Assembly (NCBI GenBank): GCA_016199525.1
Contig: JACQGL010000067.1
Location: forward strand, 1-54,327
Length of the DNA stretch: 54,327 nt
Source: Armatimonadota bacterium
GTDB taxonomy: Bacteria; Armatimonadota; SYMT01; JACQGL01
Reading direction: 5' to 3'
Below the pieces are notes generated by a model. It had not been told where the DNA came from. It saw nothing but the letters and a program-made list of their open reading frames with translations, and did no database searches. Both the position numbers and the translations under genes were made by a program. Shown piece after piece: positions 7,486 to 10,320 of this stretch (position 1 is its first letter; each line of letters begins with the position of its first letter).

Positions 7486-9357
7486 CTATCGCGCCACCCC
7501 AACCCAGACGCCCTCGTGGCACTCGAAGTCGACGGTGAACTGCCCGATGTTCGTAATCGCGGCGTTGGGGTCATAGACGATGAAGAGGACGCAGGCCCCC
7601 TGCTGGCGGTACACGAGCACACGGCTCGTCATCTCGGTCTGGATGCCGTTCAGCCGGTCCCTACCCCGCACGTACTTGAACTCCAGGAAGAGCGGCTTCG
7701 CGCCGTCCGTGGGCAGGTCGGAGAAGTCCGCCTTCGTAGTGACCGCGCCGAAGGGTAGTTGCGGCGTCTCCCGGTACAGAGTCTCCATCGCACCCTGGAA
7801 CACGGCCTCGCCAACGTCCTGAACGTGCCGTTCGCTCCTCGCCTCCTCGGTCTGGAACGCGGACGGGAGCGCCGAGCAGAGGAGGTCTCGCAAGCGGTGC
7901 GCGCAGCGGTCACGCGGGTCCACGACGTGCTGACCGCGCCCCATCAGCCCCAGGAGCGACGTGGGCGGGAGCGTGCCCCGGCGTATCAGCGCGGCGTGGT
8001 GCCCAATCATCAAGTCGAGGACCCCATTCACGTTCTGCTGGTGGCGTTGGAACAAAGACCAGAGTTGCTCGCCGTGCCAGTCCGGGTTCCCATCCGTGGG
8101 CAGGCAGTCGTACAGCTCCGGAAACTGTTTGAAGAAAGCGTCGGCGTTCGGAAGCTCTTCCAGCAGGCGCGCAAACCGCACGTAGTTCTCGGCGTGCGTC
8201 CGCTCCACGCCCTCGCCCAGCGGGCCGATGAAGATATCCTTCTCATACCGCTTCGCCAGGTCGTACATCTGCATCTCGGCGGCAATCGAGGCGAAGCGCC
8301 GGTCGATACACTGGCTGCACACGCCGCAGTGGGGCTGCTGCTTCGTCATCGCCTCCAAGTGCGCGCAGGAGACGGTTTCCTGGAGAAGCTCCGGGTGGCC
8401 GGAGGCCCGGATATCCTCGAACACCTCCCGGCGCGTTTTGTAGATGAAGGTGTTCCTGATGGTCAGCCCGGCGCGCCCGGTCAGGATGCGTGCAAACTCT
8501 TGCAAGAGTTCCAGGTGGCGCGGGTGCGTGGAGCGCGTCAGGAAGGTGCCGACGTTCTGCCCGGACTGCGGGAGGTTGATGCTCACCACGCCGTTGTCGC
8601 ACAGCCGCACGTCGTCCAGGCCGAGCATCGCCGCCGTGACCACGCCGAGGCTGGCGAAGAGGAACGAGCGGCTGCGCTGCGACTGCTCCTTCGTCCGTGG
8701 GCCACCCTTGCGATTGACCCACATACTGATGTGCGGAAAGTCCCACGCCGGGTACCTTTTCCGGATAAGGCCGACCAGGTTTCTCTGGCGCGCATCTACC
8801 ACCGGAGCGGCGCGGTGGCTTACCAGGACCGGCCGGTGCCCCTGCTGCACAGCTTCGAGAACAGCGGCAAGCGAGTCGGCTCCCCCGGAAAAAAGAATGA
8901 CTACATCCGCTCTCGGCAGCGGGTGGATGGGTTCGTGGAAATGGAGTACCTTCTGGATCGGCTCCCCCTCGGCCCGCTGCACGAACTCGAAGGACCACTC
9001 GTCACCGGTGAGGAAGCGGAGTGTTTCATCCAGCGCCAGCTGCACCTTCGGGTCTTGCCAGAGCGCCAGGTCCCAGACCGGCACTACCATGCGGAACCCC
9101 CGACACCAGCGGTCGGCGAACACGTCCTTCGGCGTGTAGCGCAGCACCCCCCGGTCTGCCATGTAAACGAAGCTCGCCACCCAGAGCAGGTCGTCCAGGT
9201 AGCGCGGAATCTCCTGGCCGAAGCCGGTGCGGAACACGTCGATGTCCCGCCGGAGGTTCTGGTCCGGGCCATAGGTGGATAGTCAGACATCCGAGGCAGA
9301 GGGTGGAGCGTGGGCGGGGAGCGGAGCGCCGTCCGCAAGAACGAAATACTCGTTCAC
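7486..9357 (-). CDS. QueC/QatC-like PP-loop enzyme fused to a C-terminal PD-(D/E)xK (REase_DpnII-MboI-like) nuclease domain; in-frame TGA at codon 25 (the uninterrupted part is 7486-9237)
   Basis: LFSGGADS PP-loop, QRSRSFLF, DNGVVSINLP, TRSTHP, and SCAH...HCGVCSQC Zn site. C-terminal ERHVQD...KADF...LEFK...FIVYDP. GTG 9357 overlaps the upstream stop (GTGA), follows AGGAGG and is in frame; TGA at 9283-9285. Confidence 0.8.
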
Positions 9358-10133
9358 CGGCGGCCCTCCTGAAGTTCCATCGCTATCTTCTCAATGGCAT
9401 AGGCGGTGAACCCGGCGGTGTTGGCCTCCGTGATGTTGTTGTTGCTCTGCCAGTTATGCTTCGAGAACCAGCCCGACGCGAACTCCTCGACGATCTTTGC
9501 GCTCTCGAAGCAGTACCCGTCCAGGGACTTGTGGAACTCCAGGACGACACTCGGAGAGGCGAAGGAACCTTCCGGCCCCACGTGGTTGGAGAGTTCCTTG
9601 TCCACGAGGTAGCGGAGGGACCGGCTCATCAGGTCGGCAAAGAACTGGCGTGCTACCCGGCCGAAGCGGGCTTCGGTGGAGAGGGCACGCCACGCGGCCT
9701 GAATACCCACCGTCTCGGTGCCGAAGAGCGAGCGGGACTGCTCCAGGATGTTGGCGGAGACGACCTCCCGCAATCCCAACTGCGCCATGCGGGAGAAGAC
9801 GTTCGGCTCGCCTCGCAGGCGTGACTGCCGCTCCACCGCCTGCGATAGCTGGTGGACGAAGGAAAGGCCGGAGGTGAAGGAGGTAACCCGGAATCCCAGG
9901 CGCAGAAGCTCATCCGTGAAGTCGCCGCTCCGCGCGGACGTGGCGATGCGGACCAGGGTCCAGAAGCAGAAATTGATGATGGGGTCGCCCGCGAGCGCGG
10001 CGAACCGCTCCTCCGCAGCTTCTGCCGTTGCTGCGGCCAGGTCCGGCGCGTTCGGAGCGGCGCTCTCCAGGGCCGAGAAGACCGCCCTCCACTTCCGGGT
10101 TTTGGGAAGCCGCCCCAAGCGGATGTGGCCCAT
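9354..10133 (-). CDS. Hypothetical helical protein with N-terminal Gly (MGHIRLG...), putative QatB-like partner of the QueC-like enzyme
   Basis: 259-aa ORF translationally coupled to the QueC-like gene. No recognisable catalytic motif. Confidence 0.8.
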   Translation of the reverse strand: MGHIRLGRLPKTRKWRAVFSALESAAPNAPDLAAATAEAAEERFAALAGDPIINFCFWTLVRIATSARSGDFTDELLRLGFRVTSFTSGLSFVHQLSQAVERQSRLRGEPNVFSRMAQLGLREVVSANILEQSRSLFGTETVGIQAAWRALSTEARFGRVARQFFADLMSRSLRYLVDKELSNHVGPEGSFASPSVVLEFHKSLDGYCFESAKIVEEFASGWFSKHNWQSNNNITEANTAGFTAYAIEKIAMELQEGRR

Positions 10134-10208
10134 TGCAGAAAGTCCGAGGGTCGTCTAGTGGCTGCACGGTCCTCGACGCGCAGATCGCCGCGTGCGTGGT
10201 AGGAAAAG

Positions 10209-10281
10209 TGGACCTGGTCGGATTCGAACCGACGACCTCCACAATGCGAATGTGGCGCTCTCCCAGCTGAGCCACAGGCCC
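10209..10281 (-). tRNA. tRNA-Ala (anticodon CGC), CCA not encoded
   Basis: Reverse complement GGGCCTGTGGCTCAGCTGGGAGAGCGCCACATTCGCATTGTGGAGGTCGTCGGTTCGAATCCGACCAGGTCCA folds as a cloverleaf with a G3:U70 pair, a CGC anticodon and a GTTCGAAT T-loop. Confidence 0.97.
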
Positions 10282-10291
10282 GAACGGCCGT

Positions 10292-10320
10292 ATCATACCA
10301 CGACCCCCCGTTGCCGTCAA
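10292..10320 (-). promoter_or_regulatory. Sigma70-type promoter of tRNA-Ala
   Basis: On the minus strand: TTGACG, 17-nt spacer, TATGAT, ending 10 nt before the tRNA. Confidence 0.7.

Follow-up and report, generated by a model that had tools for sequence, protein, structure and literature searches.

A two-gene pair on the minus strand of a 54,327-nt contig from an Armatimonadota bacterium (assembly GCA_016199525.1, contig JACQGL010000067.1; the whole contig is called the window here) encodes a 259-aa helical protein and, directly downstream, a long PP-loop enzyme related to QatC of the anti-phage system QatABCD. The first-pass annotation, made from the sequence alone, had proposed a minimal deazaguanylation defence system distinct from Qat and from type IV CBASS (cyclic-oligonucleotide-based anti-phage signalling system). 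The proposed separation from Qat does not hold, and the pair is better described as a divergent QatBC lineage, with an enzyme homologous to QatC and a partner that is QatB-like in fold and linked by profile to MGTS-type partner proteins; the separation from type IV CBASS stands in that no CBASS genes accompany the pair. It is reasonably probable that the two genes form a self-contained conflict module of the QatBC kind, most likely anti-phage, working by the mechanism proposed below, in which a putative nuclease domain fused to the enzyme serves as output.

The second gene had been recognized as a long defence-type relative of QueC, and family comparisons specify the kind. The PADLOC QatC model matches the window enzyme at 6.1e-58, the NCBIfam QatC model (NF041925) gives 205.9 bits against an equivalog cut-off of 280, and with P0123, a homologue of the enzyme, as query, the solved chains of E. 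coli QatC are found at 1.6e-27 (9vlk_A) and 2.5e-25. By these sequence comparisons the enzyme is clearly a QatC homologue lying outside the curated NCBIfam equivalog. Pfam QueC matches it weakly, at 23 bits and over the Zn-ribbon last third of the profile only, while TIGR00364 (QueC) scores 14 against a cut-off of 150, and PADLOC returns for this protein only QatC and a weak QueC match, with no type IV CBASS model. The family is large: among representatives of clusters at 50% identity, the enzyme profile matches 6326 at E<=1e-3, of which 2654 reach E<=1e-30, canonical QatC being part of both counts.

The motifs first listed for the enzyme, comprising the PP-loop, the Zn-Cys cluster, RSRSFLF, NG.VS.NLP and TRSTHP, are all present, but a premature TGA and the fused nuclease domain had been overlooked. 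In a 74-sequence alignment, S117, G119, D121 and S122 of the PP-loop, R188 and R190 of RxRxxxF, N215 and G216, T237, H238 and P239 are invariant, as is the Cys cluster with all four cysteines and its closing RR. The motif set described for QatC (SGGxDS, D(x)4R..WxR, DxWxxxF, RxRxxxF, ExG, HP, P(x)4TK and CGxCxxRR; PMC13329287) is found here as SGGADS, D28..R33..W44xR46, DEWSFEF, RSRSFLF, THP and CGVCSQCIDRR, with two deviations, DNG for ExG and TFIYKTR for P(x)4TK. The pocket motif [ST]-R-S-T-H-P aligns with TRTTHP of E. coli QatC, and two invariant QatC threonines replace the Tyr/Asp that bind 7-carboxy-7-deazaguanine (CDG) in QueC and Cap9 (PMC13279940). Given this QatC-type pocket motif, the chemistry expected of the enzyme is that of QatC.

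Cap9 of type IV CBASS offers a parallel, being a PP-loop enzyme of the QueC fold that modifies its partner CdnD at the Gly2 amine (10.1101/2025.04.06.647259, PMC13376578). However, Cap9 has about 185 aa and the QueC Tyr/Asp residues for CDG binding, whereas the window enzyme has the QatC-type Ser/Thr pocket (PMC13329287, PMC13279940), and no CD-NTase, Cap10/TGT or Cap11 is found at the window's pair. The residues of the pocket speak against an enzyme that merely copies Cap9. The label deazaguanylation was an overstatement, the reaction having been shown for Cap9 only; in three QatBC structure papers, CDG neither reacted nor bound (PMC13279940, PMC13376578, PMC13639016). Canonical QueC shares the Rossmann-like PP-loop fold and the Zn-binding Cys cluster, but lacks the N- and C-terminal extensions and the protein partner of the window-type enzyme.

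The C-terminal part of the enzyme points to a nuclease. The Pfam family REase_DpnII-MboI (PF18742; REase, restriction endonuclease) is matched by 66 of the 74 enzyme homologues at E<=1e-3, with a best value of 1.9e-10. In their alignment E469, D504 and K521 do not vary and E519 hardly does, which yields the E...D...ExK pattern of PD-(D/E)xK nucleases with its putative catalytic triad. A model of the last 184 residues reaches a predicted local distance difference test (pLDDT) of 85, and in the ESM Atlas the C-terminal stretch groups with PF18742 clusters in 20 of 30 feature matches (score 0.92), with structures superposing at template-modelling (TM) scores of 0.81-0.86. Sequence and model thus suggest a putative PD-(D/E)xK nuclease of the REase_DpnII-MboI type, its activity being presumed from these features. 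It resembles PF18742 proteins in family match, Atlas superposition and D...ExK residues and differs from them in being fused to a QatC-like ligase with no paired cognate methylase, so the pair is not a classical type II restriction-modification unit.

This domain is swapped, not fixed, across the wider enzyme family. Among 71 genome loci, 14 enzymes carry the REase-type tail, 33 a second tail type that Pfam does not match and the rest others. Of the best 150 representatives at 50% identity, 76 have a tail matching the REase type, and BLAST sorts 132 tails into 19 clusters. When ten enzymes with other types of tail were scanned against Pfam, QueC alone was matched, leaving the tails themselves without a Pfam match. 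The second tail type, which accounts for 33 of the 58 tails in the genome loci (L011, L013, L018-L027 and others), spans 220-250 aa at about residues 470-720 and conserves ..kG..yl..LL..pg...s..eL.., then a coiled-coil-like part and a C-terminal ..HL....Y.P...W; by its appearance it may be a winged-helix domain.

The partner belongs to a family of 274 proteins at E<=1e-3, mostly of 256-263 aa and all unnamed, and the Pfam, PADLOC and NCBIfam libraries hold no match to the window's member. Its N-terminus was assessed in 120 listed homologues of the 274, in a 68-sequence alignment and in 70 genome loci aligned from residue 1. The Gly at position 2, which had been put forward as the modified residue, proved to be conserved. 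The N-terminus reads MGHIRLGRLPKTxxW almost without variation although overall identity drops to 36%, and G2, G7, P10 and W15 are invariant in the alignment. A G[HS]x[RS]xG motif begins at residue 2 in 114 of the 120 listed homologues, the remaining six comprising three with the motif after an apparently mis-called upstream start and three called too short, and the start codon is followed by Gly in all 70 genome loci. In the AlphaFold2 model of the partner (pLDDT 88), twelve helices are accompanied by a 12-residue tail.

The relationship of this partner to QatB rests on fold and on a profile link. Its top fold match in the Protein Data Bank (PDB) is QatB in the P. aeruginosa QatBC crystal (9y01_A; Foldseek probability 1.00, TM 0.51/0.59 over 258 columns, E 0.035), a TM value that is borderline for the same fold; a second QatB entry, 9y02_A, gives TM 0.39/0.46, and all other listed matches stay at or below 0.29. 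Additionally, hhalign joins the partner family to the MGTS..RSPxTPEW partner proteins of a third QatBC-like lineage, described below, at 99.2% (E 1e-19, 213 columns from residue 1), with G2, P10, T12 and W15 in register. The partner carries a QatB-type Met-Gly tail with downstream Pro and Trp, the motif itself being GHIRLG and not GTS. We conclude that it is a remote member of a broad QatB-like superfamily, outside QatB as currently defined.

The two genes travel together far beyond chance. In 64 of the 71 loci, drawn from many phyla (Chloroflexota, Planctomycetota, Acidobacteriota, Myxococcota, Desulfobacterota, Nitrospirota, Gemmatimonadota, Pseudomonadota, a Parcubacteria metagenome-assembled genome (MAG) and others), the enzyme gene lies 3' of the partner gene on the same strand. 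The other seven comprise three at a contig edge, three with degenerate partner fragments and one (L046) with an enzyme remnant. On this computational evidence the gene pairing is obligate. An in-frame enzyme start overlaps the partner stop by 4, 8, 11 or 14 nt in 49 of the 64 loci, a figure that leans towards overlap since the start nearest the partner stop was picked by script. An all-against-all comparison of neighbouring open reading frames (ORFs) in the 71 loci revealed no third conserved gene.

Structure prediction further supports an association. With the window partner and residues 1-430 of the window enzyme as input, each with its own alignment, the predicted complex reached an ipSAE interface score of 0.92 (runs 0.93, 0.92 and 0.92) against 0.25 for the best control; when the tool was calibrated, 58 of 80 solved complexes came up to this mark, as did 2 of 110 mismatched pairs. 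Between runs, at least 88% of contacts are shared, and the pLDDT of the partner is no lower than 89. The confident interface involves partner residues 2-10 and 15, bearing out the earlier expectation that the N-terminus would engage the enzyme, and enzyme residues 34-45 (within D..R..WxR), the 218-234 loop leading into TRSTHP and the 342-390 helices, where the lowest-error contacts lie. A loop and the C-terminal helices of QatC are the described QatB-binding surfaces (PMC13279940). The partner and the enzyme are thus predicted to form a stable 1:1 complex that engages the partner tail.

Beyond the partnership, genes of mobile elements and of defence occur in the surroundings. After the two genes themselves, large serine recombinases are met most often (18 loci), and tyrosine integrases adjoin the pair in 5. 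A survey of 120 of 140 ORFs, the two nearest per side at 45 loci, found by Pfam recombinase (6), resolvase (5), phage integrase (4), ResIII helicase (3) and DNA methylases, besides single ORFs for BrxL, Cas3-HD, HEPN and a phospholipase D (PLD) nuclease; PADLOC assigned two ORFs each to type I, II and III methylases, type III REase, DRT reverse transcriptases and Cas1. The pair also lies on four predicted viral contigs; a search of GenBank phages with the partner protein found nothing. Distribution within the phylum is patchy: of 401 sampled genomes, 6, among them the window's own, contain a full-length match to the partner (E<=1e-28), and none of the 7 same-order genomes does.

Several individual loci extend this picture. 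In L025, L030 and L009 the pair sits in a small islet between a tRNA gene (Asn, Asn and Pro, respectively) and a large serine recombinase gene, which suggests that these islets are integrative. In L077 it lies on a Leptospira noguchii plasmid (NZ_CP091938.1, 62720-65364), where the two genes overlap by 4 nt, an IS982 transposase gene immediately precedes them and an IS3 transposase also lies beside them; the Prokaryotic Genome Annotation Pipeline (PGAP) calls both genes 'hypothetical protein', and the enzyme's C-terminus weakly matches PADLOC Argonaute-associated Helical-REase models (2.1e-5). In the Parcubacteria MAG, about 1.3 kb separates the pair from an upstream gene for a RiboL-PSP-type HEPN protein (Pfam 2.3e-14; L001:3689-4291, minus).

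Recent studies of QatABCD provide the frame in which these features can be read. QatBC alone defends against some phages, QatB G2D and PP-loop mutants lose defence, and the QatB tail enters the QatC active site (PMC13279940, PMC13376578, PMC13639016). The solved QatB-QatC structures (PDB 9y01/9y02, 9vlk and 9zee) share with the window's pair an enzyme with an N-terminal domain, PP-loop, RxRxxxF, T-R-x-T-H-P, Zn cluster and helical C-terminal extension, and an all-helical partner of about 260 aa with a Met-Gly start, whose gene lies immediately upstream and which is predicted to use the same enzyme surfaces. Unlike QatABCD, no QatA or QatD adjoins the pair; the window-type enzyme is about 160 aa longer, with its fused REase domain, and scores below the QatC cut-off (206 against 280 bits); and the partner falls outside the QatB models, with a tail of 12 residues that reads, nearly invariantly, MGHIRLGRLPKT, in contrast to a QatB tail of 30-90 residues starting MGTS (PMC13279940).

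Under the mechanism proposed here, the 259-aa helical protein would act as a divergent QatB-type partner. Met1 is removed before Gly, so the Gly2 amine would be exposed, and the short invariant tail would be held in the QatC-like PP-loop active site. Edman data on the QatB N-terminus have been published (PMC13376578). The enzyme would adenylate a carboxylate first substrate and join the product to the partner's N-terminus, as in other PP-loop ligases, a 7-deazaguanine carboxylate being one candidate only. Its own C-terminal DpnII/MboI-type PD-(D/E)xK nuclease would be the output, in place of the separate TatD nuclease QatD, and in sister lineages this domain is swapped for others. We infer on this basis that an adenylated carboxylate is ligated to Gly2, that the fused nuclease is controlled by this step and that the pair serves phage defence.

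A broader version of this proposal is held more tentatively and rates below even odds: the tag that a QatC-type ligase puts on the N-terminus of a QatB-type protein may be a general switch wired to interchangeable outputs, fused in cis here, with a DpnII/MboI-type nuclease in the window type and at least 12 other C-terminal domains in sister proteins. If so, the pair would be a complete sensor-switch-effector unit, with the ligase's first substrate acting as the infection signal. With ligase and nuclease joined in one polypeptide, it becomes possible to address within it how modification leads to output, and the near-invariant 12-residue partner tail suits peptide-level biochemistry and mass spectrometry. 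The three structure papers of 2026 on QatABCD left two questions, namely which group QatC joins to QatB and by what means a QatBC core without QatA and QatD stops phage. The present lineage helps with both and could address QatC's chemistry directly, best in an intact homologue and less so in the window's copy, where the gene is broken.

A number of results weigh against the proposed module, the evidence for which is computational throughout. CDG neither bound to QatC nor supported ATP turnover in vitro, and all three structure papers call QatC's chemistry unresolved and its first substrate not yet identified (PMC13279940, PMC13376578, PMC13639016). In the predicted complex, the named contacts assign no enzyme residue to Gly2 and do not include the PP-loop, and part of the score may be likeness, since solved QatBC structures exist. 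For the partner, a PDB profile search returned no matches; hhalign against one QatB and against 47 QatB sequences gave 0.2%; the PADLOC QatB models matched none of 6 partner-family members, with a QatB control at 1.3e-119; PF28083 is listed in precomputed Pfam for 0 of 120 partner homologues against 120 of 120 QatB homologues; and the bridging MGTS..RSPxTPEW family is itself weakly linked to canonical QatB (hhalign 19.9%, N-terminus only). For the fused domain, the PF18742 match in residues 467-574 of the window enzyme (E 5.8e-4, 19.9 bits) is under the 27-bit Pfam cut-off, and Foldseek against the PDB gave no significant match (best E 0.037, TM 0.26), with the EcoO109I restriction enzyme at rank 40 only (TM 0.27). 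Across the family, the neighbours look like mobile and defence islands, but the survey had no control set and enrichment was not shown, and within the window the pair's neighbours are housekeeping and not defence genes. Finally, the window's own enzyme gene is interrupted by the premature stop.

This interruption deserves a closer account. A GTG at 9357 overlaps the partner's TGA (GTGA), as in homologues, so the translational coupling first described is present as an ancestral start; the frame, however, reaches a TGA at codon 25, and as a result the longest uninterrupted enzyme ORF starts at GTG 9237, 116 nt past the partner stop. That ORF is without the 40 N-terminal residues kept by full-length homologues, which are mostly 610-630 aa (120 matches listed) and start M.E..V..DGA, exactly as in the 24 codons before the window's TGA. 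The closest homologue among the matches listed, P0123 (77% identical, 622 aa), has Arg at the position of the stop codon, and a CGA-to-TGA change, drawn from the protein sequence of P0123, would be the simplest reading. Deletion of the N-terminal extension of QatC abolishes defence (PMC13279940), and since the restart product lacks the 40 N-terminal residues, the window's copy is probably inactive or decaying and likely a pseudogene.

It is unlikely, though not negligibly so, that the window's copy is functional after all, with the TGA a sequencing error, a minority allele or a leaky stop, or with a restart at GTG 9237 giving a working 583-aa enzyme. The support for the TGA is thin, consisting of a single short contig, 285 nt, from a public run, which spans 9142-9426 without a difference at a depth of 2.5 and possibly derives from the same sample as the assembly; three DNA runs of one study contain small shares of the stretch (0.20, 0.07 and 0.00), leaving most of it uncovered, and no RNA run containing it is listed. 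The rest of the enzyme ORF is intact with every conserved motif, and the stop is followed by C, TGAC being a weak stop context in E. coli. Against this, the TGA appears in both the assembly and the run contig, TGA is an ordinary stop here that ends the gene directly upstream, the 40 missing residues open the N-terminal domain retained by full-length homologues, QatC lacking its extension loses defence (PMC13279940), and disrupted copies are common in the family. While the contig continues, the enzyme ORF is frameshifted, shortened, split or begins far downstream in 9 of 64 loci (L009, L020, L031, L037, L047, L054, L063, L065 and L069, with the partner gene mostly intact), and L046 retains only a 91-aa enzyme remnant after an intact partner gene. 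These disruptions could reflect decay of a costly nuclease or MAG assembly error; the loci stem from MAGs, so some cases may be assembly errors.

The same losses bear on an alternative that we regard as improbable, in which the pair works as a nuclease and its inhibitor in a toxin-antitoxin-like manner without covalent modification, the partner tail plugging the PP-loop site and restraining the nuclease until the partner is displaced or degraded. Frequent disruption of the enzyme with the partner intact, in the 9 loci, L046 and the window, fits a costly nuclease; the tight predicted complex has a large interface of 150-156 confident contacts; and in the three structure papers no QatC turnover was detected in vitro (PMC13279940, PMC13376578, PMC13639016). 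Yet the ATP-binding and pocket residues are invariant in the 74 sequences, which argues for catalysis, a PP-loop mutant of QatABCD loses defence (PMC13279940), and the invariance of Gly2 in particular answers to the needs of an acceptor that offers its N-terminal amine.

Still less probable is that the proteins serve the maintenance or competition of a mobile element, by addiction or exclusion of rivals, and not phage defence. The recombinases and integrases that adjoin the pair, the transposases beside the Leptospira plasmid copy, the four predicted viral contigs and the loci between a tRNA and a recombinase would all suit such a role, but defence systems likewise travel on mobile elements, restriction-modification, BREX, CRISPR and DRT genes are also among the neighbours, and the closest characterized relative is an anti-phage system. 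Very improbable, finally, is a modification-dependent restriction unit in which the QueC-like domain makes a deazapurine or attaches it to nucleic acid, the REase cuts unmodified or modified DNA and the 259-aa protein is a specificity or scaffold subunit. QueC-fold and REase-fold domains do share one polypeptide here, and 7-deazaguanine DNA modification systems exist (PMC10164549); however, no transglycosylase (TGT/DpdA) is adjacent in the window or recurrent among the family's neighbours, the Pfam QueC match is confined to the Zn-ribbon third, the pocket motif is of the QatC and not the QueC/Cap9 Tyr/Asp type (PMC13279940), and QatC fails to complement a queC deletion (PMC13329287).

As to novelty, the pair is not named in PADLOC-DB v2, in NCBIfam or in the PGAP calls of one RefSeq record, in keeping with the initial view that it was not already named. 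No description of a QatC/QueC-REase fusion or of the partner family was found in the accessible literature, although neighbourhood table S2 of PMC13329287 might already hold the subgroup, and the available part of a QatD survey gives seven operon forms, none matching the window's pair (PMC13434339). The principle of a QatBC core is already published; what is new is that the output domain is fused and swappable, that the partner has a motif of its own and that so large a family has gone unannotated.

The phylum sample illustrates that scale. A QatC-like gene is present in 64 of the 401 genomes, with 5 passing the curated QatC cut-off and 59 below it, so current annotation misses most QatBC-like systems in this sample. 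A QatD-like ORF lies beside 4 of 5 canonical QatC loci against 0 of 25 sub-threshold loci, a set that does not contain the window's long type, and these counts fit the published observation that only about one third of QatC-cluster genes lie with qatA and qatD (PMC13329287). The sub-threshold loci include a third QatBC-like lineage (L099-L123, same phylum), commoner in the sample than canonical Qat. Its enzymes have about 450 aa and fall short of the NCBIfam QatC cut-off, and the gene immediately upstream encodes, in 23 of 25 loci, a protein of 215-262 aa that starts MGTS..RSPxTPEW. In sequence, no other relative comes as close to the partner family as this lineage, which shares with the window's pair the sub-threshold QatC, the gene order and the lack of an adjacent QatD; it differs in that its enzyme is without a C-terminal extra domain and its partner keeps QatB's MGTS start. 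No description of this short enzyme with its MGTS..RSPxTPEW partner was found.

Table 1. Features of the partner-enzyme locus in the window (enzyme residues are numbered as in the 583-aa ORF, from GTG 9237)
Feature	Position	Strand	Basis
tRNA-Ala, anticodon CGC; sole tRNA in the window	10208..10281	minus	ARAGORN
Partner gene, 259 aa, QatB-like, all-helical, short N-terminal tail	9354..10133	minus	ORF
N-terminal motif MGHIRLGRLPKTRKW; Gly2 proposed as acceptor amine after Met removal	10089..10133	minus	conservation, predicted interface
Ancestral first 40 enzyme codons, GTG start overlapping partner stop (GTGA 9354-9357)	9238..9357	minus	read-through translation
In-frame TGA, enzyme codon 25, premature stop	9283..9285	minus	read-through translation
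Longest uninterrupted QatC-like enzyme ORF, 583 aa from GTG, stop included	7486..9237	minus	ORF list
PP-loop SGGADS, ATP pyrophosphatase motif	8872..8889	minus	translation
SQRSRSFLF	8656..8682	minus	translation
DNGVVSINLP	8569..8598	minus	translation
TRSTHP, QatC-type substrate-pocket motif	8521..8538	minus	translation, alignment to E. coli QatC
Zn-binding Cys cluster, C291...C304-G-x-C307-x-x-C310-x-x-R-R (C..CGVCSQCIDRR)	8293..8367	minus	translation
Helical extension after QueC core, residues 342-390, main predicted partner-binding surface	8068..8214	minus	lowest-error predicted contacts
C-terminal REase_DpnII-MboI-like PD-(D/E)xK nuclease domain (putative), residues 467-574	7516..7839	minus	Pfam PF18742
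Putative catalytic residues D504, E519, K521	7726-7728, 7681-7683, 7675-7677	minus	conservation

The two closest genes on each side of the pair encode a short-chain dehydrogenase/reductase (SDR), a GH4 glycosidase, a DegP-like protease with tetratricopeptide (TPR) repeats and a histone deacetylase (HDAC)-like deacetylase; as had been reported, no KAP ATPase, TatD, CD-NTase, TGT or QueDEF gene is among them, nor any Qat or CBASS gene. The base composition of the islet (62-67% GC) is indistinct from its surroundings, and an attachment-site search found no direct repeat of the tRNA 3' part flanking it, only short repeats at chance level. For the flanking 668-aa protease, the 7 same-order genomes contain matches to the protease domain of at most 45% identity but no orthologue, so an insertion of the islet could not be dated or demonstrated. 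In the source assembly, which is 88% complete, no canonical QueC was found; there are two weak PP-loop matches (ORFs of 398 and 548 aa) and, on contig C174, one QueD/PTPS-like gene (the contigs concerned are C177, C108 and C174), a gene content that says nothing firm about deazapurine supply.

The link to a tRNA gene described at first is correct for the window, where the partner ORF begins with ATG-GGC 74 nt beyond the 3' end of the tRNA-Ala gene, but it is local and no family trait: tRNA or tmRNA genes occur in 8 of 60 scanned loci and lie directly upstream of the partner in only one, L059. A scan found no terminator-like site between the tRNA-Ala and partner genes, so the pair might be co-transcribed with the tRNA. 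Just upstream of the tRNA-Ala gene, at 10292-10320 on the minus strand, a sigma-70-like promoter (TTGACG, 17 nt, TG-TATGAT) agrees with the consensus at 10 of 12 positions.

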